Positions 1 through 17,872 of a DNA stretch of 33,260 bases are shown here, piece after piece. The notes under the pieces are model-generated. The model worked only from the letters and a program-made list of their open reading frames with translations. It searched no databases and was not told the origin of the DNA. Position 1 is the stretch's first letter, and the number at the start of each line of letters is the position of its first letter. Made by a program: the position numbers and the translations under genes. The stretch is from a virus (taxonomy: Duplodnaviria > Caudoviricetes), in IMG/VR virus record IMGVR_UViG_3300020388_000038, positions 1 through 33,260 of that record; one strand, 5' to 3'.

Positions 1-2
1 AA

Positions 3-812
3 CTTAAATGTTTGGGATACTATGTCGGTACCATTAGTACCAATACGTATCTTACAAGATCCATTTGCAACATCATGAACTAAAACATTAACCATAGCAT
101 TATCTGCTATTGTTCCTGCGTCATGAAGATTCACTAAAACCTGTGACGATGTTCCAAAAATATGATTATTAGTAAATGTAAATTCTACAGTATCAGTAGC
201 AGCTAAGTCTACAGCCTGCATTGTTATAACTCCTAACTTAGCATCAAAAACAACCTCTGTTGTAGCACTTGTTTGTTGAGTTACAACAGGATTATCTAGA
301 CTAGGTACTTTTTCAAACCTCTCTATAAGCTCATATCTATCTTCAGATTGAGATAAAGTACCAGATATATTAAGGTTACCACTTTTATCTAACTTCATCA
401 CGTCTGCTCCTGATGTCCCAAAAGTCATAGAGTCATTAGAGTGATCATAAAATATTTTACCTACATCGTTGTCGTTAGCATCACCAAAGTAAATGTTGCC
501 TGATCCTGCTGTACCTGAAAGTATAGATAACCCAGAGTCTCCTGAGTTTTCTAATATTAACTGGTTAGCAAAAGAACTAGCAGTAACTGATCCAGCACTT
601 ACAGACATAACATGAAGTAAACCATCAGGTTGAGTTCCTCCAGTACCAACACCAACTTTTAAAAACTCTGCACGATCTGTAGAGAGATTCATAGCGGTAG
701 AGTTACCGTCACCTGTTTCAACACTTCTAAGTGTTGAGTTTAAGACCTCAGTGCTTGTCTGAAGTATTCTTTGATATGTCTTAGATATAGATTTACCTTT
801 TAATGAACCCAT
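3..812 (-). CDS. Putative tail fibre/virion structural protein, runs off the left window edge
   Basis: Not in ORF track. ATG at 812, 1 nt past the holin stop; reads MGSLKGKSISKTYQRILQ...KVGVGTGGTQPDGLLHV...GNIYFGDANDNDVGKIFYDHSNDSMTFGT..., a G/S/T-rich beta-strand pattern typical of tail fibres; open to the edge. Confidence 0.7.
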   Translation of the reverse strand, partial: MGSLKGKSISKTYQRILQTSTEVLNSTLRSVETGDGNSTAMNLSTDRAEFLKVGVGTGGTQPDGLLHVMSVSAGSVTASSFANQLILENSGDSGLSILSGTAGSGNIYFGDANDNDVGKIFYDHSNDSMTFGTSGADVMKLDKSGNLNISGTLSQSEDRYELIERFEKVPSLDNPVVTQQTSATTEVVFDAKLGVITMQAVDLAATDTVEFTFTNNHIFGTSSQVLVNLHDAGTIADNAMVNVLVHDVANGSCKIRIGTNGTDIVSQTFK

Positions 813-813
813 T

Positions 814-1200
814 TTACTTTTTCTTTATTTTCTCTATAGACCTACCTGCAAAATAAGCCCCATATACTGTTATTAATAACGTTTGATATATAGGAATATA
901 GCTTTCTTGAATTACAAAACCTCCTATATTTCCGTCAAATACTGACAAAACTACAAAAATTGCAGTTAAAAATATGCATATTAACGGTCTAATATTTTTA
1001 CTAAGCCAGTTGTCAGACTTCATATCTGCCTCCCACCTTCTCGACACTTGCTCTTGTGCTTGAGACTCAGCTTTGATGAAGATTTCCTCCATAGCTCTTT
1101 TAGCAGCCATTCTTTCATCTTCAGATGTGGTTAAATTATCCACAACATTTCCAACTTGCTGTATAAGTCCTCCTCCTAATAAATCTAATATCTTGCTCAT
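814..1200 (-). CDS. Holin (3TM-holin-like)
   Basis: RWEADMKSDNWLSKNIRP followed by two hydrophobic helices and AYFAGRSIEK; directly downstream of the endolysin gene. Confidence 0.8.
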   Translation of the reverse strand: MSKILDLLGGGLIQQVGNVVDNLTTSEDERMAAKRAMEEIFIKAESQAQEQVSRRWEADMKSDNWLSKNIRPLICIFLTAIFVVLSVFDGNIGGFVIQESYIPIYQTLLITVYGAYFAGRSIEKIKKK

Positions 1201-1664
1201 ACATTAGGTTTTATTTCTGCATATCTATACTTAGTATCTCCTTCCTCGTCTTTATAAGCTTCTAGTACTTGCTTACGATTATCTTTTTCTTTTAGTGATA
1301 TATGTATCCAAGAGAAATCAAATTCATTTATCATTTGATCAAACTCTAGTCCTGAATTTAATATCCAATTATAGATAACCTTATTATTCATTTGTCCTCT
1401 TCCCCAAAACTGAAGATCCAATGCCTCGCCTTTGCTATGTTGGCTACGATTGCTCCCACCAATAGCACGATTAAGTTCTTTGGAACGATAACCACTACTG
1501 ATCCTGATAGGACCAACAGAGTTACGAAGAGGTTGTATAAGACCTGTAATAAGCCTTTGCATACTTTCCAAATGTTTTTCGGACATCTCATTTTTTATAC
1601 CTAATCTTTTTGCTGTGTTACTGTGTTCTATCTCTGCACGAGAGAAATTCTTACTTAGTATCAT
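1197..1664 (-). CDS. Endolysin, peptidase M15A family
   Basis: LSKNFS, ISSGYRS..LN.AIGGS..SQH..GEALD, FDQ.I.E and WIHIS zinc-ligand motifs. Confidence 0.9.
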   Translation of the reverse strand: MILSKNFSRAEIEHSNTAKRLGIKNEMSEKHLESMQRLITGLIQPLRNSVGPIRISSGYRSKELNRAIGGSNRSQHSKGEALDLQFWGRGQMNNKVIYNWILNSGLEFDQMINEFDFSWIHISLKEKDNRKQVLEAYKDEEGDTKYRYAEIKPNV

Positions 1665-1667
1665 GAT

Positions 1668-1904
1668 TTATTTTTGCTTGACTGATTCTAATTCTTTTCT
1701 TAAAAAATCAATTTGATCTTGTAGCTTTTCGTTATTAAAATCAAACTCTATTTTACTAATTTCAGTTTTAGGCAGACTTTTAGCCTCACTAATATCTTTC
1801 TGTAAAACAATATACTCACCAATTAATAAAAATAAAAAAGCACAAATACTAAACAAAGTCTTTAAGCTAATGCTAAATGTAGTGTCTTGTATTTCTTTAC
1901 TCAT
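1668..1904 (-). CDS. Small protein with one TM helix and a coiled coil
   Basis: Hydrophobic LFSICAFLFLLIGEYIVL then heptad-like tail; adjacent to lysis genes. Confidence 0.6.
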   Translation of the reverse strand: MSKEIQDTTFSISLKTLFSICAFLFLLIGEYIVLQKDISEAKSLPKTEISKIEFDFNNEKLQDQIDFLRKELESVKQK

Positions 1905-2125
1905 TTTTCTTTTATTTGATTAGAGGCTAATAACAATTCTATTGCGTGTAATCTAGCTGATATTTCAACTAAAGTAGCTTTTAAATCTGTATCAGATTGC
2001 TCTAAATGATGTACCCTAGATTTTAATTTAGTGTATTCATTGTTTAAATTCACCCACAAACTAAACGCAGTAGCTAAAATTACTGCCACACCTATTACTA
2101 ACTCTATAACACCCACTGGAACCAT
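1901..2125 (-). CDS. Small protein with N-terminal TM helix and coiled coil
   Basis: VGVIELVIGVAVILATAFSLW then Leu heptads; ATGA overlap with the next gene. Confidence 0.65.
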   Translation of the reverse strand: MVPVGVIELVIGVAVILATAFSLWVNLNNEYTKLKSRVHHLEQSDTDLKATLVEISARLHAIELLLASNQIKEK

Positions 2126-2158
2126 AACTATTAATTATTATAAACTTTTAAATACACT

Positions 2159-2692
2159 TTAACACTTCCATCTTCTCCTCGCCTGTCGGATTCTTGAGTT
2201 AGGATCGTTTTGAGTCTTTTGGCTACTTCTCTTTAGTTGGCCAAGAGATCTAGCACAGTATGACTTTCTTCTTTTAGCGGACTTACTACCAGGTTTTACA
2301 TCTCCTGTAACAGCAGTTTTAAGTTTACTACCAGGGTTAGCACGTCTATAAGCCTTAACACCTTTTGATGTCATACCAGCTCCAGACTTAGTAGGTCTAA
2401 AGTTACCAGACTTAATGCTGGTCTTTATTCCCATTCCTTTTTTTGCTTTCTTTACTGCTTTCACTTTTTTATATCTAGATACCCTTCCTTTTTCGTTCTT
2501 TTCTTTTTGTGCTCTAGCTTTCTCTGATGGTGTTACCTCACTCCACGTAGAGGGAGTGTCTTTGCTAATCTTCTTAGTGGGGCGAAAGGTGTTCTCCCCT
2601 CCAGAGTAATCTTTCTTTCCTGAGGGTGTCTTCCAGTTTTCTTTAAACCACCTCTTAAGGTTTAACCCTGCCTTTGTTTTCCTTATAGCCAT
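2159..2692 (-). CDS. Lys/Arg-rich phage protein, apparent fusion of two small conserved domains
   Basis: N-half LKRWFKENWK..RPTKKISKDTP.TWSE and C-half GMTSKGVKAYRRANPGSKL...KRRKSYCARS...RRRWKC resemble small basic domains of marine phages (DUF5872/DUF6321-like, from memory). Confidence 0.7.
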   Translation of the reverse strand: MAIRKTKAGLNLKRWFKENWKTPSGKKDYSGGENTFRPTKKISKDTPSTWSEVTPSEKARAQKEKNEKGRVSRYKKVKAVKKAKKGMGIKTSIKSGNFRPTKSGAGMTSKGVKAYRRANPGSKLKTAVTGDVKPGSKSAKRRKSYCARSLGQLKRSSQKTQNDPNSRIRQARRRWKC

Positions 2693-2695
2693 AGG

Positions 2696-2878
2696 TTATC
2701 CTCTTTTCTTTCTGCACTTAGCTATAGCTCCAGAAGCGTAGGCACTAGGGAATACTTTGTAACTAGCCTTTACTTTATGATAGCACGCATCCTTTACAGA
2801 CCCACCCTTCTTCATAGTCTTAACCTTCTTACTTTTATTCTTTCGCTTTACAGCTTTACAAGTACAACCTTTATGCAT
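2696..2878 (-). CDS. Small basic phage protein
   Basis: KDACYHKVKASYKVFPSAYASGAIAKCRK motif recurrent in marine phages. Confidence 0.7.
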   Translation of the reverse strand: MHKGCTCKAVKRKNKSKKVKTMKKGGSVKDACYHKVKASYKVFPSAYASGAIAKCRKKRG

Positions 2879-3051
2879 TACTTTCCAACTTTTTTCATTG
2901 CTATTGTGTGAGCCTGAGTGAAGGTATTTCCAGACAGCATAGCTTTTTTCATAGAAGCCATGTGTTTCGCACTATGATGAACTGAATGTTTTTTCATAGT
3001 TGCTTTTTGTCTATCGGTTAAACCTTTTGATTTCTTAATTGCTTTAGCCAT
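2878..3051 (-). CDS. Small basic His/Met-rich protein (57 aa)
   Basis: Below ORF-track cutoff. MAKAIKKSKGLTDRQKATMKKHSVHHSAKHMASMKKAMLSGNTFTQAHTIAMKKVGK; fills the gap exactly, TAATG overlap with the next gene. Confidence 0.75.
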   Translation of the reverse strand: MAKAIKKSKGLTDRQKATMKKHSVHHSAKHMASMKKAMLSGNTFTQAHTIAMKKVGK

Positions 3052-3054
3052 AAC

Positions 3055-3267
3055 TTATTTTTTAGCAAATTTCTCTACCCCAGAAATACCAAACGAGCCT
3101 AACACAACCCACACAAATGAATCGTATACAAACTCGTTTATAACTAGGTCTGACCCTACCCAACCAGTAACAAGGTCAGCTACCATTATCATACACATTA
3201 TAGCAAATGCTATAAACCCTACGATAGCTTTCTCGTTCCAGTTGTTGTCGTTCTTAAATATCTCCAT
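3055..3267 (-). CDS. Small two-TM membrane protein (holin-like)
   Basis: Two hydrophobic segments and a C-terminal GSFGISGVEKFAKK. Confidence 0.65.
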   Translation of the reverse strand: MEIFKNDNNWNEKAIVGFIAFAIMCMIMVADLVTGWVGSDLVINEFVYDSFVWVVLGSFGISGVEKFAKK

Positions 3268-3272
3268 TATTC

Positions 3273-3623
3273 TTAATCAGGTGTATTATCAACAATAAAT
3301 TTACGAGCCTCTGAGTTTGTCATTAAAGTATTTTTAGGGTAGGCTAAACCTTTCCCCAAATCTAATAATGCACTTACCTCGCCTTCTTTCCAACTCACCT
3401 CTAATTCTAAAATATAGTAATTAGCATTTCCAACTTTAAGTTTAGGTACTGCACCGAACTTTCTTAAGTTATATACTCCTAACTCTTTAAAGGTTGGGTG
3501 TAAAACTTCTTTTAAACTACCATCTTCATTGTAAGAAGGTATACCATAAGTAGAAACTAATTCTGTTGGTATTTTACTTTCGTAAGTTGATGTGTTAAGA
3601 CACAGATATACGTTACCTCTCAT
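3273..3623 (-). CDS. Hypothetical protein
   Basis: ORF tightly packed in the minus-strand operon. Confidence 0.6.
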   Translation of the reverse strand: MRGNVYLCLNTSTYESKIPTELVSTYGIPSYNEDGSLKEVLHPTFKELGVYNLRKFGAVPKLKVGNANYYILELEVSWKEGEVSALLDLGKGLAYPKNTLMTNSEARKFIVDNTPD

Positions 3624-3625
3624 AA

Positions 3626-3976
3626 CTATCTTGATATTTTAACTGTTCCTCTGTCGTTCCATAACCTACCTGCTGATCTTGGGTCAGAAGTTGGTAAGCT
3701 ATTACCCATAGCAGATGAAGACAAGCTATCTGCTTCTACTGAGTCGTCAGAGCTGTTTTGTACAGACTTCACTAATATGTGACAGAAAGCTCTAAGCTTC
3801 TCTGCTGTAATACCTCCTGTTCCTGTACTCTCAAATAACTCCTCAATCATATCAAGAAGTTCAGCTCTATCTCTTTTTTCATCAGATGCTACTGTAACTT
3901 TAGTAAGGGTCTGTCTTCTTACTTTTGATTTGTATGAGTTTTTTACAGTTGAGTCTTTGTAATCTCTTTTTGCCAT
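3626..3976 (-). CDS. Hypothetical virion-associated protein
   Basis: C-terminal LPTSDP..AG.LWN..GT.KIS motif common in phage tail-associated proteins. Confidence 0.6.
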   Translation of the reverse strand: MAKRDYKDSTVKNSYKSKVRRQTLTKVTVASDEKRDRAELLDMIEELFESTGTGGITAEKLRAFCHILVKSVQNSSDDSVEADSLSSSAMGNSLPTSDPRSAGRLWNDRGTVKISR

Positions 3977-3988
3977 TTTTTATTTATT

Positions 3989-6643
3989 TTATAATCCGTA
4001 ATCTGATGAAAAGTCATTACTAAATGCTGAACCTGGTTTATGTTGACTTAATCCTGCGTTGTAGTTTTGCTCTATTTCATCTGCTAATAACTCTCTATCG
4101 TAGAGCCTAACATCATCTATTAGGTTTTTATATATTCTAGTAGCATCTGTACCTCTACCAATTTTTCTTGCTAAGTTTGTTGACACTGTCTCATCTGTGT
4201 TTCCTGTTTGTGATTGACTTACTGCGGTTAAATCATTTATATACAACTTAAGATTACCACTAGCATCTCTTGTACCTGCAAAGTAAAACCAAGCCCCATC
4301 TGATACAGAACTTGTTATATTTGATGCTAGTTCCGTTCCGTTTACATAAAAAGAAACATACCTAGTACCTCCAGAAGTATTTGTCAATATTGCAAATGAA
4401 CCTGAAGGTGCTCCTACTGGGTTACCTCCATTAATAAAAATGACGTTACCCGAACTAGAACCACTATTTACAAATGTATATTTAGCCCAACCATCTATAG
4501 AGAAAGCACCTTGTCCAAAATCTAAGGTATCATCATCAGCGACCTCAGCATAACCACTTCCATCTAAGTTTAAACTATGTTCTCTAAATCGAACATCGTT
4601 ATCTAAGACGTCTTTAGATGGGTCGTTAGGGTCTGATATTAGAGTAATCTCATCAGCTACTGGTGTGCTCTTCGCCCAATCCATTAAACCAAGTTGTGGT
4701 ATAGTAGGTTGCTGGAGAACCCAAGTTGCACCTAATACAGTTCCATCGCTATCGTGGTCGTCTGCATTACCATCATAGGCAGTACCCACACTTACTTCTT
4801 TTAAAGAGATACTATTAATAATGACTGCACCATCTCCATCTTCTTGCATTTTAAAACTTGTACCATTAGAAGTTATAACACCAGTATATGTCGTGTAATT
4901 TACAGGTATGTCTTCTATTGTTTTCTGAGTAGTAGAACCTGTTATAAGTTTTAAATCACTAAGAGTGCTAGTTTGACTTTTTGCAACAACGGTGTATTTA
5001 TAAGTCTTACCAGACTCAATAACAGACGTTTGAGTTACAAATGCCCCACCATTAGGTAGATATAAAGCATCTGACACAGTCGTATCAATATCAGCACCAT
5101 TGTTTTTATTCCAAACGCTATCTGTAGCAAAATCACCATTATCAAGTTCCTCACTACCTAAAACAACAGCACTATTATAGGCGAAACTACCTGCACCCTC
5201 GCTCAAGTGCCAATAGCCTTTTATGTTTGATACATTTAAAGATGTTTCTTCTTTCAATGACAGGTTATCTATCGAAAACTCAGAAGCATTAACACCATAC
5301 ATATAAACATTAAGATTATCACCTAAAGAAACAACTCTATAATTGTATATACCATTTTCAGTAAAGTTTGGAAGATTACTACTAGTTTCTGCAATATTAA
5401 ACTGGTTAAAACCAAATTGAAAAGCACCTTCTACGTAGTCGCTAATCTCAAAGGTTAAATCATATATCTTACCTTTCGTAACACTTAGTACTTGTCTGAG
5501 TGCTGTAGTTTCATGGTGATTTATAGAAGCTTTACCACCACTAACAGTCCATCCTGTATTAGCGTTCCATTTGCTAGCGTCATCAAACCCTCCGTCATCA
5601 ACTATCTCACTACCATAAGTTTTAACTATACTAGGATTATCCGTAATAAGGTGCTGAGGATTATCGTAGTCAAAGGTTACATCGGCTTGTGTCCAAGCTT
5701 TGTCGTATATTTGGAAGTCTGCTAGTTTTCCTTGTAAATATCTACCTGCACCATATGACCCAATATAGCTATCAGCAGCTGTAGTTGATATTCCTGTTGG
5801 AGCAGTTTCTGTACTTATATGTTCTCCATCTATATATACATTTACTGTATCTTGGTCAGTAATTGTGATAACAAGTCTATGCCATTCATTTGAAAGGTCA
5901 GGTATAGAAATTGAGGTAACGAAATCTGAAATTAAATTATAAAAACTTATAGAGTTGTTACCCCTAAACCACGCAGTTGTTTTACCATATGTTAAAATTG
6001 CCCGTTCACTTGAACCAGATGCTAAAACAGGATTTACCCAAAAAGCAAAAGTAGCTTCAGTAGCATTAGGCATTGATTGTGAACCTAAATCTACATAATC
6101 ATTAACCCCATCAAAGCTAAGTGCCTTTCCTGTGTATAAGGTAGCACTATTTGAATTATTAGTGGATTTATCTTGTGCGATTTGAGTTACTTCTTGTACT
6201 GATACATTGTCTATTGAGCCTACAAAATTTAAAGATTGAAAAGCTACATCCCCAGTTGAACCATCCCATTTTGCATAGTAGGTATAAGTATCATTACTTG
6301 TAACATTTATCGCAGTTGAACCGTTACCTTTAAGAAAATTTAAAGTCCCTGAAGTAGAACCACTTACTGTAAATTCTATTTTATACGTTGATGTTAAATT
6401 TACTATACCATCTTGGCGAAAATAAGAAACAGATTGTGTTCCATCAGAATTAGCTTTACCACTTGATATAGTCCAACCCGTTCCTTTAGTCCAATCGCTA
6501 TCCGTAGCAAAATCTCCGTTAGTAACTACATCCTCCCCAAGAATCTCACTATTCTCGAAAGGTAGCCACATCTTTAGCCCAGACCTTACAAAATCTAGCA
6601 AGGCTGCAGTTATGGATGTTAAATTTAAACCTAAACCTAACAT
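3989..6643 (-). CDS. Tail/receptor-binding protein with LamG (concanavalin A-like) domains and repeated CBM-like modules
   Basis: ALSFDGVNDYV..FAFWV..WHRLVIT..YIDG..FQIYDKA and LDGSGY..DGW..WFYFAGT..LYIN..IDDVRLYDREL..EIEQNY LamG signatures; three NGDF/DGGF..W..SIDN.S..E modules. Confidence 0.8.
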   Translation of the reverse strand: MLGLGLNLTSITAALLDFVRSGLKMWLPFENSEILGEDVVTNGDFATDSDWTKGTGWTISSGKANSDGTQSVSYFRQDGIVNLTSTYKIEFTVSGSTSGTLNFLKGNGSTAINVTSNDTYTYYAKWDGSTGDVAFQSLNFVGSIDNVSVQEVTQIAQDKSTNNSNSATLYTGKALSFDGVNDYVDLGSQSMPNATEATFAFWVNPVLASGSSERAILTYGKTTAWFRGNNSISFYNLISDFVTSISIPDLSNEWHRLVITITDQDTVNVYIDGEHISTETAPTGISTTAADSYIGSYGAGRYLQGKLADFQIYDKAWTQADVTFDYDNPQHLITDNPSIVKTYGSEIVDDGGFDDASKWNANTGWTVSGGKASINHHETTALRQVLSVTKGKIYDLTFEISDYVEGAFQFGFNQFNIAETSSNLPNFTENGIYNYRVVSLGDNLNVYMYGVNASEFSIDNLSLKEETSLNVSNIKGYWHLSEGAGSFAYNSAVVLGSEELDNGDFATDSVWNKNNGADIDTTVSDALYLPNGGAFVTQTSVIESGKTYKYTVVAKSQTSTLSDLKLITGSTTQKTIEDIPVNYTTYTGVITSNGTSFKMQEDGDGAVIINSISLKEVSVGTAYDGNADDHDSDGTVLGATWVLQQPTIPQLGLMDWAKSTPVADEITLISDPNDPSKDVLDNDVRFREHSLNLDGSGYAEVADDDTLDFGQGAFSIDGWAKYTFVNSGSSSGNVIFINGGNPVGAPSGSFAILTNTSGGTRYVSFYVNGTELASNITSSVSDGAWFYFAGTRDASGNLKLYINDLTAVSQSQTGNTDETVSTNLARKIGRGTDATRIYKNLIDDVRLYDRELLADEIEQNYNAGLSQHKPGSAFSNDFSSDYGL

Positions 6644-6647
6644 ATAA

Positions 6648-7010
6648 TTAGTGTTTCGGTGCTATGTAAGCTATTACAGAACCTGAGGTTAAATCAATTT
6701 CTGTCCATCTTCCAAATATAGTAATTCCTTTAGGAAATACTACAGAATCTACAACCTTACCACCAGACCCTTGCTCTTCAGTCTCTGAACCAGAACCCAA
6801 ATCATTAGCAGCAGTTTGGGTGTTAACAAACTTAGTTGCTGTTTCCGCAACTAAACCTGCTGTTGAATCAAAAACTGTATCTTCTAAAAAAGTAATAGCA
6901 GCAAAAATGTGATTTGTTGGTGGTATAATAGCATGAGAACTTGATGTTGTGTATGAAGATCCGTACTGACCTAAAGAAAGTTCGTTAAACTTTGTACCTG
7001 TTAAAGCCAT
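6648..7010 (-). CDS. Small virion structural protein (putative)
   Basis: FAAITFLEDTVF...FPKGITIFGRWTEIDLTSGSVIAY beta-rich pattern; first gene after a promoter. Confidence 0.65.
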   Translation of the reverse strand: MALTGTKFNELSLGQYGSSYTTSSSHAIIPPTNHIFAAITFLEDTVFDSTAGLVAETATKFVNTQTAANDLGSGSETEEQGSGGKVVDSVVFPKGITIFGRWTEIDLTSGSVIAYIAPKH

Positions 7011-7043
7011 AATATTTTTATTTTAAATTTTTTATTTTATACG

Positions 7044-7051
7044 CAAATGTA
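7044..7051 (-). promoter_or_regulatory. Bacteroidota-type -7 promoter element (TACATTTG)
   Basis: Exact TAnnTTTG match in the AT-rich divergent gap upstream of 7010. Confidence 0.65.
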
Positions 7052-7081
7052 ATGATAATTTTTTAATTATGAGAAATTTAT

Positions 7082-7089
7082 TATCTTTG
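7082..7089 (+). promoter_or_regulatory. Bacteroidota-type -7 promoter element (TATCTTTG)
   Basis: Exact TAnnTTTG match 20 nt before ATG 7110. Confidence 0.65.
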
Positions 7090-7109
7090 ACCTAATTTAA
7101 TTTAATCAA

Positions 7110-7433
7110 ATGAGGAATTACCTGAAGTATCTTAGTGATACCATGTACTCCTTCCAAAGAAAGTACGACCTTACAGATAACCAAATGAGGTTCCTACTGT
7201 TCATAAATGACGAGAAGGGGTCCTTTACTAAGAGGTTTATAAGAGAGAGTATGTACGTTAGTAAGAACTTTAACGATAGGATGTTTCCTGAGTTAGTTAA
7301 AAGAGACTACGTATTTGTATTTGAGAAACGAGCCTGGAACTCTAACCTGCCTAATCAGTATAGGGTTACACACAAGACTCATAGATTAATAAATAAATTT
7401 TATAATGTCCTAGAGGGGCGAGAAGAAATATAA
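7110..7433 (+). CDS. Putative winged-helix (MarR-like) DNA-binding protein
   Basis: YDLTDNQMRFLLFI...ELVKRDYV...YRVTHK pattern resembles MarR-type wHTH. Confidence 0.5.
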   Translation: MRNYLKYLSDTMYSFQRKYDLTDNQMRFLLFINDEKGSFTKRFIRESMYVSKNFNDRMFPELVKRDYVFVFEKRAWNSNLPNQYRVTHKTHRLINKFYNVLEGREEI

Positions 7434-7435
7434 AA

Positions 7436-8356
7436 ATGGCAAAAACTATTAAAAAGACAACTGATAAAGAAGCTAAAAAAGAGCTTAGGAAGTCAGGAGC
7501 CTTAAAAGGACTATCTAGGAAAGATAAGAAAATGGCTGTTAAAAAAGCTGGATTCAAAAAGAGGCAAGATATGCGAGCCGATATGAAGGCTGCACGCAAA
7601 GAAGATGCGGATATAAGAAAGATGTTTGCTGATAGACGAAGAGAAGAAGCCAGAAGAGGTGGTCAAAGACTAGCCTATGATGTCGGAAGTAAAGGTCGTT
7701 ACCAAGGAACACCTTCAGAGGTTATGCAAGGAATTAGACGCACCTCTGGTAGTTTTGGTAGTCAAGAAGGGAAAAGAATTATGGAGAACAACGAAAGAGC
7801 TATGCTTAATAGAAAGAATAAAGCTAATGCTAAGGTTGGAGAGATGTTTGAAATAATAGACTCTAAAGGTAAGAAACAAAAAGTAATGAAGAAAAAAGCA
7901 ATGTACGGATCAAAAGTAAAAGCTGTTAAGAAGGCTAAGAATGGAGGTAAAATTACTGATCCACCGAAGAAAACCACTAAAAGTAAGTTTGAAAATACTA
8001 ACGTTGGACAAATACTTTACAATATGGATTTTGAAGAAAATCCAAATTACGAACCAGGTTTTGTAGCAGGATCGAAACAAGATTTAGAAAACCCTAAGTA
8101 TATTAAGAAGAAATCCAATCCAGGGGATAGACCGTATGACGAAGCCCCAGATATTAGCTCACCTAGTGATAACACTAGAGTTAAGAAAGTTACTGTAAAA
8201 GCTAAGAAGGCTAAGAATGGTGGAGCCTTAAAATCAGTACCATCAGATGCTAAAGGGTTGTCTAAACTTCCAAAGAGTGTACGTAACAAGATGGGGTATG
8301 CTAAATATGGGTCAAAAGTTAAGGCAATGTACGGTGCTAAGATGAAGAAAAAATAA
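7436..8356 (+). CDS. Lys-rich protein with repeated K-A-x-x-G motifs
   Basis: KAMYGSK, KKAKNGG (x2), YAKYGSK, KAMYGAK. Confidence 0.7.
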   Translation: MAKTIKKTTDKEAKKELRKSGALKGLSRKDKKMAVKKAGFKKRQDMRADMKAARKEDADIRKMFADRRREEARRGGQRLAYDVGSKGRYQGTPSEVMQGIRRTSGSFGSQEGKRIMENNERAMLNRKNKANAKVGEMFEIIDSKGKKQKVMKKKAMYGSKVKAVKKAKNGGKITDPPKKTTKSKFENTNVGQILYNMDFEENPNYEPGFVAGSKQDLENPKYIKKKSNPGDRPYDEAPDISSPSDNTRVKKVTVKAKKAKNGGALKSVPSDAKGLSKLPKSVRNKMGYAKYGSKVKAMYGAKMKKK

Positions 8357-8365
8357 GTAATATAA

Positions 8366-9544
8366 ATGAAGTCACCAAAGGTAAAAGGTATAGGTGAAGT
8401 AGTCACCGAATATGGTGCTAAGGTGATGAAGATTTTTAAGAAGGGGCTACTAGGACGTAGCCTTTTCGATTTTTATGGGGATGTGAAAGCACAAACCTTT
8501 AGAACTAAAGAATCTGCATCAGCACCATCCACCCCGACAGACGGGGCTGGGGGTATCATGTATACTAAAAGTGCAGATGGTAAACTATACTACAAGAGTA
8601 ACGAGGTCTCTGAGGTGGAGCTTAGTTCTACTGGGACCACATTAACCAATGAGGAGGTTCAGGATATTGTAGGTGCTATGTTTGCATCTAATACAGAGAC
8701 TAGGATAGCTGCAACGTATGAAGACTCTGACGGAACAATAGATTTAGTTGTAGATGCTATACCTGTAGACCTAACATCAGATGGTGCAGGTACTATACAC
8801 GCAAATAATGTACCTACATTAAATCAAGACACTACAGGTACCTCTGCATTAGCTACTATTGCTACAACGGCTAATATAGCTAAAAGTGTTGCAGGTTCAA
8901 CTGACGCTGATGTGAGTATATCGTCAGATGGGGATGTGAATATAATTATAGATGCTGATGGAGATGAATTAAGTAGTCTTGTATTATTTAAGTCTAGAGC
9001 TGAAGAGATAGGAAGAATAGATGAGCTAGGTAATGCTACATTTCCTGGTGTGATAACAGCTAAACAGTATCAAGTATTTCCAAGTAATTTCATAGATGAC
9101 ATTAATGATAGTCTAGTTTTTATACCTATACATGGTACAACATTCGAGCAACCACAAGCTTACCAAGATGACGTGGCTATAGTAGCTCCTTGCGATGGCA
9201 GAATAGTATCCGTCACTCTCAATATAATGAGTGTATCATCAAATGCTGATCTTACACTTACTGTTTACACACTACCCCCTAATACAGCAGGTACTGGTAC
9301 TTTCCCAAGTGATTGGGTTTTAGAAGAATCTGAGCAATTGTCTATAACAAGTTCTTCTGATAATCATGTTTTAAATTTTGCTTTTAGCAATGATAAACAT
9401 TTTGAAAGCACAGAGAAGTTTGTCGTAGCAATTCAAGCTAGTTCGGATCCAGGTCCAAATGCTTTTATGTATGCAACAACAGTAGTAGAATGGGATTACA
9501 GCACTCTGCTATCAACAACTGCAGAGCATAGCTCTGTACCTTAG
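8366..9544 (+). CDS. Putative virion structural/fibre protein
   Basis: APSTP..G.G.MY.KS.DGKLYYK, EEVQDIVGAM...YEDSDGTIDL and LNQDTTG segments typical of fibre proteins; beta-rich C-terminal domain. Confidence 0.65.
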   Translation: MKSPKVKGIGEVVTEYGAKVMKIFKKGLLGRSLFDFYGDVKAQTFRTKESASAPSTPTDGAGGIMYTKSADGKLYYKSNEVSEVELSSTGTTLTNEEVQDIVGAMFASNTETRIAATYEDSDGTIDLVVDAIPVDLTSDGAGTIHANNVPTLNQDTTGTSALATIATTANIAKSVAGSTDADVSISSDGDVNIIIDADGDELSSLVLFKSRAEEIGRIDELGNATFPGVITAKQYQVFPSNFIDDINDSLVFIPIHGTTFEQPQAYQDDVAIVAPCDGRIVSVTLNIMSVSSNADLTLTVYTLPPNTAGTGTFPSDWVLEESEQLSITSSSDNHVLNFAFSNDKHFESTEKFVVAIQASSDPGPNAFMYATTVVEWDYSTLLSTTAEHSSVP

Positions 9545-9654
9545 AATAATGTGATACTAAACAATATATCATTAACTAATGATCCTGTTGCGGCAGGTGT
9601 TGTAGGAACATTTTGTTTAGAATTTGATTTAACAACTTAATAGAATAATTTTTA

Positions 9655-9662
9655 TATATTTG
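9655..9662 (+). promoter_or_regulatory. Bacteroidota-type -7 promoter element (TATATTTG)
   Basis: Exact TAnnTTTG match 26 nt before ATG 9689. Confidence 0.65.
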
Positions 9663-9688
9663 CAAACACAATCTTAATATAAAATAAA

Positions 9689-10081
9689 ATGGCAACAGTA
9701 ACAGCAAAATTAACATTAACAAGCTCAGATTTACTATCTCAGAATTTAAACATTTCTGTGTCTAAATCAGCGACAGCTTCTCACACTACAGGTTTAGCTC
9801 GTAAGAAAGTAGCTCAAACAGCAGTGAACGCTAACGCAGCATTACTATATACAGCAGATGACTACGCAGCTATAGCATATATCTACATTAAAAATACAGA
9901 TACTACAGCTACAAACTACGTATACGTTTATGATGACACCACTTCTGGTGATCCTGTCATATTAAAGCTAGCTGGTGGGGAGTTTGCATTTATGCCTACT
10001 AACGCAGATAAGACGTTAAAAGCTTACGGTACTAACGCAAACACTGTGGTAGAATCAATGGTATTTGGTACAGATCAATAA
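9689..10081 (+). CDS. Putative virion structural protein
   Basis: A/T-rich beta protein (YIYIKNTD...L.GGEFAFMP) with its own promoter element. Confidence 0.65.
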   Translation: MATVTAKLTLTSSDLLSQNLNISVSKSATASHTTGLARKKVAQTAVNANAALLYTADDYAAIAYIYIKNTDTTATNYVYVYDDTTSGDPVILKLAGGEFAFMPTNADKTLKAYGTNANTVVESMVFGTDQ

Positions 10082-10464
10082 GATCTAGACTTTAATCCCT
10101 TTTTGTATTCCTTATTAGCCTTTTTGCAACCCTCACATCGGCATCCTCTTCTGTATGCTGCTGCTGAGGGGCAAGGGTTTTTTGGGTAGTTACCCCTAGA
10201 CGCTCTATAGTTGCAACTCTTGTGAGAGAAGGCTATATTCTCAATATCAAAAAATAACCCCTTAGGATCTTCTGAATGAAGCCAAGGGGTTTTATGTTCT
10301 ACACTCATGTCATCTGAATGCTCTATCTCTGCTGCACACTGAAAACACCAGTGCATATCTAACTTCTTCGCAAGCTCAAACATTAAAGTCTTCTTAAGCC
10401 TGTTCGATGCAGTACCAGGGTCCATACCCAACTGCTCCTTCTTTACCTTCTTGCTGTTATTCAA
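10075..10464 (-). CDS. HNH endonuclease-like protein with Zn-binding cysteines
   Basis: CFQC...SVEHKTPW...NIAFSHKSCN HNH core plus C-terminal YRRGCRCEGC; TTG start uncertain. Confidence 0.75.
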   Translation of the reverse strand: MNNSKKVKKEQLGMDPGTASNRLKKTLMFELAKKLDMHWCFQCAAEIEHSDDMSVEHKTPWLHSEDPKGLFFDIENIAFSHKSCNYRASRGNYPKNPCPSAAAYRRGCRCEGCKKANKEYKKGLKSRSY

Positions 10465-10615
10465 GACTAAGCTCTGTTACGTTTAAATCTACAAGCTCTC
10501 CTTCAGACCCCTGTAGTATCACAACGTAATGCGAGTCCCCTACGTAATGACCTGTAGCTATAAAACCTTTCTCGTGACCATTTGAGTTGTCTGTACCGTA
10601 AATGTTATCGAACAT
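10457..10615 (-). CDS. Small hypothetical protein (52 aa)
   Basis: Start moved to ATG 10615 (MFDNIYG...) because a TACCTTGC promoter-like element lies at 10633-10640 inside the longer ORF. Confidence 0.5.
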   Translation of the reverse strand: MFDNIYGTDNSNGHEKGFIATGHYVGDSHYVVILQGSEGELVDLNVTELSLE

Positions 10616-11067
10616 ATATCTTGAATTTTTTTGCAAGGTAAAAATTTTTTTTGAGGTGTAAAAGGGGTGGGGGTTATATATATAATCTGCGTGCGTGTTT
10701 CCATTCCCGAAACCGAAATCTCCGAAGGGGGTACTCCAAACTAAAACCAATGCGTACATTTCAAATGTCGATTATCTATTTATGGTATGCACTACCTACT
10801 ATCTACTAGCTAGGTGCATTTAATTGTATGCAATACCTAACATTGTCCTCGCTCCATATAAAGACCTGTAACGATGCCTATTCATTGGGCTACTATAATG
10901 CCCCAAGTGTATGCAGATGTCCCATTAGGCTACACTATATGGGCGATAGAGAGAGATAGAGGTGGAATAACTCCCCTCAATTTCCCCCAATCCCCAACAC
11001 ATACAATCAACACTAAAAAAACTTTACACTCTCAATCCCTTGCTATCAGTACATTCTTTGATTTAAT

Positions 11068-11114
11068 TGTAAAAAAACTTTACATTTTATTTGGTAGTGT
11101 AAAAAAACTTTACA
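11068..11114. promoter_or_regulatory. Tandem palindromic operators TGTAAA-N5-TTTACA
   Basis: Identical 17-mer TGTAAAAAAACTTTACA at 11068-11084 and 11098-11114; degenerate copy at 11012-11028. Confidence 0.7.
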
Positions 11115-11121
11115 ATATTTG
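11090..11121 (+). promoter_or_regulatory. Early promoter (-33 TTTG, 20-nt spacer, -7 AATATTTG)
   Basis: TTTG 11090-11093 and a 7/8 match to TAnnTTTG at 11114-11121, with canonical Bacteroidota spacing. Confidence 0.7.
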
Positions 11122-11123
11122 CA

Positions 11124-11166
11124 GAGCAGTTGAGGTAATAATCACTGCTCGTTCTTTTACATACTG
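11124..11166 (+). promoter_or_regulatory. Hairpin plus boxA-like sequence (antitermination leader or attenuator)
   Basis: GAGCAGT/ACTGCTC stem 11124-11150 directly followed by GTTCTTTTACATACTG. Confidence 0.5.
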
Positions 11167-11770
11167 ATTTAGATATAGCACACATCATGGTTGTGGCAAC
11201 GTCCTTAGGGATTAGCAGTAAGTCCACGTTAACCTAGTGTAGCATCTGAGTACTGAAAGCATCTTTCTAGTTTGCGAGTAGGTATAGAAGTATAGAGTAC
11301 TCCTTTAGCTTAATTGAGGGAGGTAAGTCTTAGTAACGATACGTGGAAGTAGCATTGCCTACCTAAGTGTATTAGAGCAATAATTCAATTGGCGTTTGTA
11401 AGTATCGAACCAACTTAACGGAAACCACTGCCGACAACCAAGTGGGCTTGGATAGACCAATAGGCTATCATCAAGTTAGGTAAAGCACCATAGGGGATGT
11501 AAAAAGTCCATACCGATTAATATGGGAAGTCTATCAGAGGGGATGCCTAATGATAGGTGGTAAGCAATTGAAGTACCACCTTGATAAGGCGTGAAACTAA
11601 GTGGCAGTTAGTTTGAAGCAAGATAGACACCACGCCTTTGTATGTTAAGGCGTGATTAATGACAACATACAATTTTTGATTCGATGGGGGTGCATTTATG
11701 TACCCTCCTTTAAAGCTACCAAAGGCAGTTACAAGTCTGCATAAAAGCTGAGTAGAGGAAACATTAATCA
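11165..11770 (+). ncRNA. Candidate large structured non-coding RNA (about 600 nt), family unassigned
   Basis: No + strand ORF of 60 aa or more; downstream of a promoter; more than 12 local and long-range complementary segments (see findings). Boundaries approximate. Confidence 0.65.
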
Positions 11771-11781
11771 ATATAAAAACT

Positions 11782-12048
11782 ATGAAAAATCTAACATCAA
11801 GTACAACAAAATCATCGCTAACTACTTATGTATCAAAATCGTTCAACACCTTTACTCCTAAAGGTAACGAGATTAAAGTATCAGTAGTAAGGAGAATTAT
11901 TAATGCAGGCTTAAGTCCTTTTATATCTAAATATGAATACTTTATAGATACACCAAGTGAAAGTCTTAAGGCTTGGGATAAAGATTCATTCCTTTACTAT
12001 GTAAACGAGTATATAGATAAATATTACACTAATAAAATGGGAGCATAA
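11782..12048 (+). CDS. Early hypothetical protein
   Basis: A-rich leader ATAAAAACTATG. Confidence 0.7.
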   Translation: MKNLTSSTTKSSLTTYVSKSFNTFTPKGNEIKVSVVRRIINAGLSPFISKYEYFIDTPSESLKAWDKDSFLYYVNEYIDKYYTNKMGA

Positions 12049-12055
12049 TGCTCCC
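12039..12055 (+). terminator. Hairpin over the stop codon; weak terminator or processing site
   Basis: GGGAGCAT-A-ATGCTCCC perfect inverted repeat with a poor U-tract. Confidence 0.4.
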
Positions 12056-12077
12056 TTAACCTAAACAACTAGAAATT

Positions 12078-12230
12078 ATGAATTTTACACAAACAATTAA
12101 ATCATTAAGCTCAAAGGAATTAAAGCAACTTTATAAGGAGCTTAAAAAAGAAAAATACTCTATTAATTTATTACATAGATTACAATGGATAAATGAGGAG
12201 CTTATAAATAGAGGAGATTTATACATTTAA
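12078..12230 (+). CDS. Early hypothetical protein (50 aa)
   Basis: Below cutoff; MNFTQTIKSLSSKELKQLYKEL...RGDLYI, bounded by two start repeats. Confidence 0.7.
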   Translation: MNFTQTIKSLSSKELKQLYKELKKEKYSINLLHRLQWINEELINRGDLYI

Positions 12231-12247
12231 CTAAACAACTAGAAATT

Positions 12248-12520
12248 ATGAACACAACAATCATAACCGAAGAAATAACAATAGAACACCTTAATAGTTA
12301 CGCAGAGCAAACACTATATCGTATGTCTTTACTTGCAGACTACTCCCTTACACATAAAAAGAATGGTAAGGTAAACGAGTACCTAATAACTGCCGAAGTT
12401 AGAGGTCTACAAGGTGGTAGTATATGGCTTGAAGTAGTAAGTGTAGAGTACGATAAGAGTAACGAAGAAACACTTATAGATGAAGCAGTAATAAACTTAT
12501 TTGAATCAAACATAAGATAA
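12248..12520 (+). CDS. Early hypothetical protein
   Basis: Begins at a start repeat. Confidence 0.75.
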   Translation: MNTTIITEEITIEHLNSYAEQTLYRMSLLADYSLTHKKNGKVNEYLITAEVRGLQGGSIWLEVVSVEYDKSNEETLIDEAVINLFESNIR

Positions 12521-12538
12521 CCTAAACAACTAGAAACT

Positions 12539-12721
12539 ATGGAAATAGAATTTACAGAATCAGAAATTGAAGCGTTACATAGTGCGATAGGTAATATACC
12601 ACCAATGAATTCATTTAAAGGTCAAGTACCTATAAATTCACATACGCTTTCAGCTTGGCAAAAATTATGCGAAGCAAGAAGTGATATATTTAGACAAAGA
12701 TTTAAAGAAGAAAATAAATAA
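12539..12721 (+). CDS. Early hypothetical protein
   Basis: Begins at a start repeat. Confidence 0.7.
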   Translation: MEIEFTESEIEALHSAIGNIPPMNSFKGQVPINSHTLSAWQKLCEARSDIFRQRFKEENK

Positions 12722-12850
12722 GCACCCACACAACCAAGAAAGTCTTGGGGGTGAATAGAGATGGACAATAGGTATGCTGAAATCTGATAGCATACGCAAG
12801 AGATGTTTAGAACTTTTGAAAGTAAGCAGACCTATTGTTCCCACTCTTTA
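12722..12850 (+). ncRNA. Candidate intergenic structured RNA (hairpin plus three-way junction)
   Basis: CCAAGA/TCTTGG inside CACCC/GGGTG; ACAATAGGT/ACCTATTGT stem enclosing ATGCT/AGCAT and TGTTTA/TAAGCA arms. Confidence 0.5.
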
Positions 12851-12874
12851 CATTAAACTAAACAACTAGAAACT

Positions 12875-13096
12875 ATGAGCAGTTACACAACAATAGGCTA
12901 CCTACAATCTAAGATGATACGTATGCCTTTAAACCTAAACACTAATTGGAACGAGGATATTAATTCACTATCCTCAACACAAGAGATTATCGACTACATA
13001 GACAAGAATGGTACAACAGATGAGCATTGGAGATTACTCCATGCTATCAAAGTTATGGAGGGAATGAATAAAACAACTAACCTATTAAAAGACTAA
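12875..13096 (+). CDS. Early hypothetical protein
   Basis: Begins at a start repeat. Confidence 0.7.
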   Translation: MSSYTTIGYLQSKMIRMPLNLNTNWNEDINSLSSTQEIIDYIDKNGTTDEHWRLLHAIKVMEGMNKTTNLLKD

Positions 13097-15243: not shown

Positions 15244-15267
15244 TGTAAAATAAGTTTACTATGTTTG
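15244..15267 (+). promoter_or_regulatory. Operator (TGTAAA-ATAAG-TTTACT) overlapping -7 element TATGTTTG
   Basis: Same geometry as 11098-11121. Confidence 0.7.
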
Positions 15268-15295
15268 CAATCTAATTAAACCAAACCAATATGCT

Positions 15296-16294: not shown

Positions 16295-16603
16295 ATGAAA
16301 AATAAAATTATAGCAGAATTTATGGGAGTTAAAACCATTGCAATGGATGAGTTATATTCTATACTTAGACAAAACAGAGAAAATGGTTTTATACATACAC
16401 CACAAGCCTACACTATAGATGAACTTAAATACCATTCCTCTTGGGATTGGCTGATGCCAGTAGTCCAAAAGATAGGGGATGAATATCTTAACACACCATT
16501 TGATGAAACATACTCACACCTTACAGAGCAGTATGAAAACATATGGACTAGAGAAGATACATATAAGGCAGTAGTAGAATTTATTAAAGACCAAAACAAC
16601 TAG
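16295..16603 (+). CDS. Phage protein, ABA-sandwich-like family, paralogue 2
   Basis: Start moved to 16295 by alignment with paralogue 1: NKIIAEFMG...LKYHSSWDWLMPVVQKI...YKAVVEFIK. Confidence 0.65.
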   Translation: MKNKIIAEFMGVKTIAMDELYSILRQNRENGFIHTPQAYTIDELKYHSSWDWLMPVVQKIGDEYLNTPFDETYSHLTEQYENIWTREDTYKAVVEFIKDQNN

Positions 16604-16608
16604 AAATT

Positions 16609-16986
16609 ATGGGATACATAAGCGAGGTACACATAGCAGTACCAAAGAAAGATGAGACAGAATTAGATGCTATCATGAACGAACATAAATTACTTGAGGG
16701 AAATTACCCTGCCTTTATTAAAGAAGATTACCCTGTCTTTACTAATGACCCTATAGATGAGAGGTTAGATTATGTTATCTATCGTGGTATAAGCCTTAAG
16801 TGGTATGAGGAATATAAGGATGTAAAAGCAGTAAACTCCTTTATAATGGATAAACCTTACGATTCCTGTGAAGATGCTCTACAGGGTAGAATGATGGTAT
16901 GTATAGGAGAGGACAACGCTGTACATTCAGAAGTAGGAGACTATTACGAAGTATTTAATATTAACGTGGTTGTCGAATTACAATAA
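16609..16986 (+). CDS. Hypothetical phage protein
   Basis: MGYISEV...LKWYE.Y.DV...IGED motif; starts at a junction repeat. Confidence 0.75.
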   Translation: MGYISEVHIAVPKKDETELDAIMNEHKLLEGNYPAFIKEDYPVFTNDPIDERLDYVIYRGISLKWYEEYKDVKAVNSFIMDKPYDSCEDALQGRMMVCIGEDNAVHSEVGDYYEVFNINVVVELQ

Positions 16987-17812: not shown

Positions 17813-17836
17813 AGTAAAAAAAGTTTCCTATATTTG
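17813..17836 (+). promoter_or_regulatory. Degenerate operator overlapping -7 element TATATTTG; promoter of the recombination/replication operon
   Basis: AGTAAA-AAAAG-TTTCCT then TATATTTG at 17829-17836; TTG 20 nt upstream. Confidence 0.65.
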
Positions 17837-17872
17837 CATCATAAGTTAATTAAATTTAAAACAACCAAAACT

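Follow-up and report, generated by a model that had tools for sequence, protein, structure and literature searches.

What is encoded by the roughly 600 nt that separate the promoter of an early operon from its first gene in an uncultured marine phage? We examined this question in the caudoviricete record IMGVR_UViG_3300020388_000038 (33,260 nt, analyzed as a whole and called the window below; the genome record is 52% complete), for which a sequence-only reading had proposed a single ornate non-coding RNA at 11165-11770. As judged from comparative sequence analysis, the locus is that of a large conserved structured RNA, built of separable modules and followed by a predicted self-cleaving ribozyme.

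Genomic context of the non-coding region

The + strand is indeed free of genes here, with no ORF of ≥50 aa in 11168-11781, and the sequence motifs quoted in the earlier reading were all at their stated coordinates (10/10). The reported GC richness held relative to the early genes (40.6% vs 33.7%) and is not special to the RNA: the upstream non-coding and HNH region (10100-11000) is equally GC-rich (41.3%), so that GC content alone is not distinctive. Downstream lies a long rightward operon of small ORFs, which begins with the following gene.

11782..12048, + strand: opening ORF (88 aa) of the early operon downstream, without a PHROG match

Relatives do not keep this ORF behind the RNA; read by eye, about 20 different ORFs take the first place after the cassette among them, which argues against a gene-specific leader. 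PHROG matches identify Erf, exonuclease VIII, PhoH, HNH and endolysin in the window, which also encodes a DnaB-like helicase with only ~33% identity to cultured phages. The host is probably a member of the Bacteroidota, because the promoter and boxA words are of that type (see below), and from gene order we infer expression early in infection.

Several further features were observed in the window. A small HNH nuclease gene (10075-10464, − strand, 129 aa) lies beside the non-coding region and may mark a packaging end; it fits a core packaging-type HNH, the search itself having named it 'HNH endonuclease' only. Very lysine-rich ORFs occur at 2159-3051 (− strand) and 7436-8356 (+ strand), with similar short motifs at the ends of some such ORFs; the former has PHROG matches only to families without an assigned function, and the latter has none. 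The word CTAAACAACTAGAAAYTATG, repeated ahead of many small early ORFs (12041-12879 and 16572-16613), is read here as a translation-start signal, and could possibly be a recombination point for first-gene swapping. Additional Bacteroidota-type promoters occur at 15244-15269, 17814-17838 and 9641-9664, with a one-mismatch copy of the palindrome described below at 15244.

A conserved fold across related phages

Homologues were gathered by a neighbor-protein search and by pattern scans of viral and metagenome contigs; the pattern scans gave many chance loci, and nhmmer-confirmed ones alone were retained. The resulting 43 distinct profile hits are all on viral or metagenome contigs, and 31 of them were aligned, leaving out nine partial copies, one nearly complete copy (L248) and two with module A only. 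Three relatives are complete genomes of 61-64 kb, and module B of the relatives (see below) is 74-96% identical to that of the window. The RNA had no match among cultured phages and plasmids (blastn), no hit in a core-pattern scan of GTDB genome contigs, no homologue in 401 Flavobacteriaceae genomes (a single 28-nt match, E 1.2e-4), and no profile hit at eight loci reached via the 9689 protein (L003, L006, L007, L010-L014), several of which stop short of the region. A literature search returned no published description of it; the IMG/VR motif set of PMC10690425 (29-151 nt), covered in part, may contain fragments. Across these searches, the family is absent from Rfam and uncatalogued.

The alignment divides the RNA as follows.

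11161..11293, + strand: module A, self-contained branched domain, variable; elsewhere joined to module C
11300..11685, + strand: module B, conserved core with ~20 helices and five predicted pseudoknots
11310-17/11385-92, 11354-58/11377-81, 11404-12/11677-85, 11488-92/11521-25 and 11638-45/11666-72, + strand: the module B pseudoknots, predicted from the alignment
11686..11707, + strand: spacer hairpin; 6/31 twister-bearing relatives have a small three-way junction in its place

Overall, stem searches on the same 31-sequence alignment yielded a model of 133 pairs. These are paired in 94.3% of 3963 cells (slid controls, 32-38%), a fraction that is partly circular because the model was built from those sequences, and the evidence therefore lies in the two-sided changes. 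Such changes were found at 57 of the 133 pairs vs 34.5 ± 2.8 in shuffles (0/500 reach this number), i.e., homologues display the covariation expected of a structured RNA. Joint changes on several tree branches were seen for the pseudoknots 11310-17/11385-92 (four), 11488-92/11521-25 (three) and 11638-45/11666-72 (five), although these counts of independent changes are inflated because the hairpins look recombination-swapped, whole hairpins occurring as few discrete alleles in many combinations among relatives. Neither 11354-58/11377-81 nor 11404-12/11677-85 showed a two-sided change; the latter is maintained through G-U wobbles only, and its strand 11677-85 is also retained in module-C leaders without the partner strand. 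Hence at least three of the predicted pseudoknots of module B are shown by covariation to be real. Among invariant positions, 130 of 141 fall in module B, a figure inflated by the search patterns used, and 63 invariant positions are unpaired in the model, e.g., in loop 11430-40.

Signals from the single sequence are weak, so that the structure is established through homologues. The folding energy, anticipated to lie below that of shuffled sequences, did not stand out (z −1.22; 3/20 shuffles as good), and the AGTA words, taken as a sign of loop-E motifs, were not clearly more frequent than in shuffles (10 vs 7.0 expected; at least 10 in 12.9% of 1000 shuffles), so that the loop-E reading is not supported. 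Helices of ≥7 perfect pairs numbered 16 vs 9.5 ± 3.0 (3/200 shuffles reach 16). Nor did the idea of one nested 600-nt fold survive, since modules A and B assort independently among relatives. The long-range helices proposed for it were poorly kept in the alignment, with 110/174 and 76/145 cells paired for 11188-98/11429-40, 85/193 for 11223/11341, 148/205 for 11248/11296 and 129/177 for the possible loop pseudoknot 11278/11356, counts that are somewhat low because module-A columns are imperfectly aligned; 11653/11762 formed 8 or 9 of its 9 pairs in only 4 of 30 relatives scored, six registers being allowed. The strands of the rejected long-range helices pair locally instead, with two-sided changes. 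Among the local hairpins, 11447-75 (244/248 cells), 11556-80 (205/205) and 11594-614 (110/114) stood, each with two-sided changes, while 11507-26 (146/155, none two-sided) gave way to the pseudoknot 11488-92/11521-25 (155/155, two two-sided pairs) and 11531-56 (156/179) to the pairing 11529-35/11622-28 (211/217).

The small three-way junctions found ahead of the twister, after either module B or module C (L008:7955-8012, and in L193, L256, L002 and L001), fall into two or more types; compensatory changes are visible in them, and Rfam gave no hit.

Promoter, palindromes and a boxA-like site at the 5' end

The leader of the RNA carries a compact series of putative expression signals.

11068..11084, unstranded: operator-like palindrome TGTAAA-N5-TTTACA, perfect match
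11090..11121, + strand: Bacteroidota-type promoter, with TTTG at 11090-93 (−33 box), a 20-nt spacer and the −7 box AATATTTG at 11114-21
11098..11114, unstranded: second palindrome, perfect copy, adjoining the −7 box
11124..11150, + strand: leader hairpin in a boxB-like position, varying in sequence among relatives with the hairpin retained (by eye)
11151..11163, + strand: boxA-like site GTTCTTTTACATA, present as a variant in 35/35 distinct leaders

The placement of the RNA behind a promoter with operator-like palindromes, as first proposed, was borne out by these two perfect copies: sites within one mismatch number four vs 0.45 expected (0/100 shuffles), and 31 of 33 leaders hold at least one looser copy. 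TTTG is the consensus −33 box of Bacteroidota, and 32 of 33 leaders fit a loose promoter pattern, with transcription predicted to start near 11126; a sigma-70 promoter scan is uninformative for this host type. The window's −7 box departs at its first base from the consensus TAnnTTTG, located at −12 to −5 in the available text of PMC9723704, and many relatives match it exactly. Taken alone, the −7 and boxA patterns are not above chance in the window, and their support comes from position and conservation.

The boxA-like site resembles a word of rRNA operons. In relative L002, the word at this place, GTTCATTGACATATTG, is exactly that of Bacteroidota rRNA spacers and leaders, and the putative site in the window shares 11 of its 13 bases with the rRNA word. 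A genome scan with the L002 word gave 122 loci, of which the 80 listed are mostly from Bacteroidota, and GTTCWTTGACATATTG fell within rRNA operons at all 20 genome loci tested (19 in the 16S-23S spacer, one before 16S), these having been hand-picked from the 122 with Bacteroidota names favored. A hairpin followed by a boxA or boxA-like word directly behind the start site is common to this leader, rRNA-operon boxA/Nus systems and lambda nut, although, unlike for lambda nut, no N-like protein was identified here. According to the available text of PMC10931766, boxA-bound Nus factors block Rho and chaperone rRNA folding.

A predicted twister ribozyme or a tRNA-like element at the 3' end

The 3' boundary initially set at 11770 had to be revised, since the last 60 nt correspond to a separate predicted ribozyme, so that a released RNA would end at 11711.

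11707..11758, + strand: minimal type-P1 twister without P3/P5 (Rfam RF03160, 44 bits, E 4.5e-8, model 1-68)
U11711/A11712, + strand: predicted cut site, with G11750 the predicted general base (twister model)

Hairpin 11714-49 does pair as the sequence-only reading had described, its true identity as the P2/P4 core of the twister having gone unrecognized. The twister was the one strong hit in a permissive Rfam scan of 10600-12100; at gathering threshold, Rfam returned nothing in the whole window. Its scores (39.5-44.7 bits, E down to 2e-10 per genome) do not reach the Rfam cut-off of 67.2 bits, and the optional P3 is absent. In the available text of PMC5408937, about 20% of twisters have a short junction where P3 would be, and the U-A cut, general-base G and general-acid A are named. 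The element shares P1, L1 with U-A, P2, P4 in twister order, T1, T2 and the conserved G before T1 with the O. sativa-like minimal form of RF03160, and differs in its score below cut-off, in a T2 of AC/GU where the usual one is a GC pair set, and in bounding a large non-coding RNA; its activity is predicted.

Both sides of pseudoknot T1 (11730-32/11752-54) have changed in 10 of the 25 twister variants examined, and T2 (11718-19/11735-36) is invariant and paired. P2, P4 and T1 change on both sides together in the 10/25 twister variants, all 25 of which were selected by a structural pattern that required pairing; these changes represent perhaps one ancestral event, and 311/500 shuffles reach the pair count. 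U11711, A11712 and G11750 are invariant in 25/25 variants, the same letters being part of the selecting pattern. Each of five genomes examined holds a single twister copy (5/5).

Position provides a separate line of evidence. Among 38 distinct module-B cores, five ended too early and were dropped; in the 33 complete ones, module B is followed by the twister in 31 and by a tRNA-like element (acceptor stem plus T-arm) in two. The tRNA-like element begins within 3 nt of the twister-cut position, i.e., two unrelated devices appear to replace one another at one site. These elements (L195:3302-3455 and L270:2349-2469) have a T-arm with a covarying stem and end in ACTA; ARAGORN called neither, and a weak T-arm Rfam match was obtained for L195 only. 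Theta ribozymes of gut phages, self-cleaving ribozymes that mature 3' ends, come closest as a precedent for ribozyme-based maturation of a phage non-coding RNA; in the available text of bioRxiv 2023.06.13.544163, they are HDV-like and trim tRNA trailers, whereas here a predicted twister stands behind a 585-nt RNA.

Exchangeable modules between promoter and twister

Five relatives (L002, L225, L226, L228 and L236) keep the promoter and twister with a different RNA, module C, in place of module B. No match was found between the module B and module C profiles, or between the C profile and the window, and module C carries its own boxA word (the exact rRNA word at its start). Module A is joined to module C in L225, L226 and L228, and a further module, D, lies ahead of module A in L245 and L269. 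With C, D, A and B swapping between promoter and twister, the locus is thus a slot for exchangeable RNA domains.

Module C itself (L002:8520-8810; also in L225, L226, L228, L236, L408 and L409) is an uncatalogued, apparently structured RNA of ~110-290 nt with variable inserts, present in L408 and L409 in a minimal form without the usual 3' cassette. Module D (L269:490-610, L245 and L236:120-330) is a conserved non-coding block before A or C, behind a boxA-like word.

Contigs from RNA libraries

At least part of the stretch is present in 17 RNA runs, and seven RNA runs plus one run of unrecorded kind were compared with the window, at the level of contigs, not reads. In X1, a marine metatranscriptome, a 452-nt contig is identical to 11239-11690 and further contigs lie over downstream genes. 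X2 is continuous over the promoter region (10424-11295), so that DNA can be present in RNA libraries. An X7 contig bridges the predicted cut (11658-11777) and would thus derive from uncleaved RNA or from DNA in that library, the same run holding upstream non-transcribed DNA. Contigs of X1, X3 and X4 end at 11690, 11691 and 11687, i.e., 20-24 nt before the predicted cut; these ends come from one study at depth 2-4 in which other gaps exist, and they are not counted as evidence, nor is the lack of X1 contigs over 10036-11238. Overall, the library contigs contain the RNA sequence but do not prove transcription or cleavage.

One contig, of run X6 (window 11235-11667, where it ends), represents a relative with ~130 extra bases inside module B (247 letters vs 117).

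Comparison with known large RNAs

The placement of this RNA in the size class of ROOL and GOLLD holds, as it is large, conserved and structured, and neither family's model matches. These two RNAs served as comparators in size, complexity and phage setting (available text of PMC12286853, PMC5737381 and PMC12990946); PMC11662667 and PMC6064168 added nothing decisive. GOLLD (RF02032) is likewise a large phage RNA with several junctions and pseudoknots; as far as described in PMC12286853, a single chain joins its variable 5' domain to a conserved 3' one, and two Flavobacteriaceae copies also stand behind a boxA-like word. It differs in that RF02032, a model of the conserved 3' domain, has no sequence or model match here, and in lying in tRNA arrays, whereas this RNA heads an early operon and ends in a predicted twister; no tRNA gene was found in the window (of a record 52% complete) or in 14 related loci. 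ROOL (RF03087), of about 580 nt with several junctions and at least three pseudoknots, is alike in size and complexity only: RF03087 has no match, the predicted host phylum is another, there are no tRNA neighbors, and a predicted ribozyme lies at the 3' end.

Could the RNA nevertheless be a divergent ROOL or GOLLD? Its size, its phage setting and a variable 5' part followed by a ~400-nt conserved 3' domain, as in GOLLD, would suit such a reading. Yet the ROOL and GOLLD models gave no match in the region (E up to 10) or in five genomes, while the same models found true copies (ROOL of pMP118, E 1.1e-29; Flavobacteriaceae GOLLD, E 1e-34), and profile comparisons in both directions were empty or at noise level. 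Because the models miss this RNA and find true copies, we do not regard it as a ROOL or GOLLD member, and divergent membership is very improbable. In the permissive scan of 10600-12100, Rfam models of OLE, HEARO, group I/II introns, RNase P and tmRNA likewise gave no match at E up to 10, and the raiA model had no match either; resemblances to RNase P, group I introns and tmRNA seen by eye had no model hits and were dropped.

The two Flavobacteriaceae GOLLD loci (L419:1501-1977 and L420:1501-1981; E 1e-35 and 1e-32, under cut-off) both have the boxA-like word GTTCATTGA just upstream, and the L419 copy sits in a tRNA array. Attempts to obtain GOLLD controls elsewhere were negative, both for four named records and for 151 genomes from the class around G408. 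The marine Bacteroidota phage phi14:2 (Cellulophaga) offers a parallel, as its early region yields abundant and persistent intergenic non-coding RNAs in the available text of bioRxiv 2020.03.07.982082; that phage is crAss-like with its own polymerase, and positions 1-9000 of its genome had no profile match.

Proposed mechanism and alternative explanations

We somewhat favor the view that the locus makes an rRNA-style phage RNA that would be released by the predicted twister and then persist as a stable free RNA early in infection. In all relatives the region opens with a Bacteroidota-type promoter, followed by the leader hairpin and the boxA-like site; host polymerase would start near 11126 and NusB-S10 would load on boxA, which would protect the untranslated 600-nt transcript from Rho and aid its folding, as for rRNA. 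Modules A and B would fold as the transcript is made, and the twister is predicted to cut at U11711/A11712, giving a ~585-nt RNA with a 2',3'-cyclic phosphate and leaving the downstream mRNA with a 5'-OH. We consider these steps, from signals and transcription through folding to twister cleavage, jointly probable. Least certain is what would follow: the freed RNA may bind a host factor (a defense or RNA-binding protein) as decoy or scaffold, possibly as an oligomer like ROOL and GOLLD, and would then be an exchangeable accessory gene made of RNA. Action in trans has a slight edge in our estimate, because the RNA is exchangeable and is located among early genes that vary; a decoy role specifically is less likely than not.

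The main rival, which we rate as rather unlikely, is a cis-acting antitermination leader that modifies polymerase for the long early operon, the twister only trimming the spent leader. Lambda nut and HK022 put are models of such leaders, and the position directly behind the start site, the boxB/boxA-like signals and the long rightward operon of small ORFs would all fit. However, cleavage would sever the tether to polymerase, and + strand terminators are few downstream: the terminator scan found no + strand intrinsic terminator before 19684 and none near the RNA end, with only three of 14 sites downstream on the + strand. In addition, the same slot takes either module B or module C, although their profiles show no relationship, and five pseudoknots over 390 nt exceed the needs of a boxA. 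Compatible with twister release, and possible though doubtful, is a tandem of separate RNAs, A of ~135 nt and B of ~390 nt, processed apart. The occurrence of A with C and of D before A speaks for it, as do weakly correlated A and B distances (Spearman 0.26) and a stem search of the alignment that found no A-B helix with consistent covariation. Against it, B has no boxA of its own or visible processing site, whereas C has its own boxA, an A-type domain precedes B in 31/31 aligned relatives, and the one-chain architecture of GOLLD offers a precedent for a variable 5' domain joined to a conserved one.

Other readings concern what the conserved core itself might be. Its multi-pseudoknot build and invariant unpaired positions would befit a new class of ribozyme or ligand-binding RNA; the lack of any group I/II intron, RNase P or tmRNA match, an identity within module B as high as given above, and an invariance partly forced by the search patterns make this improbable. 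HEARO and omega RNAs are guide or scaffold precedents for an HNH-linked RNA, and the HNH gene lies upstream in 23 of 24 related loci with enough DNA. That the RNA guides this HNH is highly improbable, however, as the protein has only 129 aa, is encoded ~700 bp away on the other strand and is equally present in three module-C phages tested, with no HEARO match. Conservation driven by the 74-aa antisense ORF present in the window (11547-11771) has negligible probability: over 11547-11685, the frame and its freedom from stops are kept in only 5 of 31 relatives, which refutes this explanation, and the ORF had no PHROG match.

Returning to the favored reading of a released RNA, a broader picture may be sketched with caution, in which the cassettes would be exchangeable accessory genes made only of RNA, A to D, with a boxA borrowed from rRNA operons on one side and a 3' device for self-release (twister or tRNA mimic) on the other. 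The A+B RNA would then be one more kind of large RNA that assembles with itself, and its release within the first minutes of infection would serve to disarm or titrate a host system.

Implications for large phage RNAs

Large ornate RNAs from bacteria or phages are few in number and of open function; this family adds one with defined predicted ends, ~35 natural variants and a built-in release switch. A single point change in the twister would distinguish action in cis from action in trans, and transcripts made in vitro would have a homogeneous 3' end for cryo-EM. The twister in turn gains a concrete predicted job, large non-coding RNA maturation, which the tRNA mimic standing in for it at that position supports, and the related phages would constitute natural RNA-module swaps in one expression slot.
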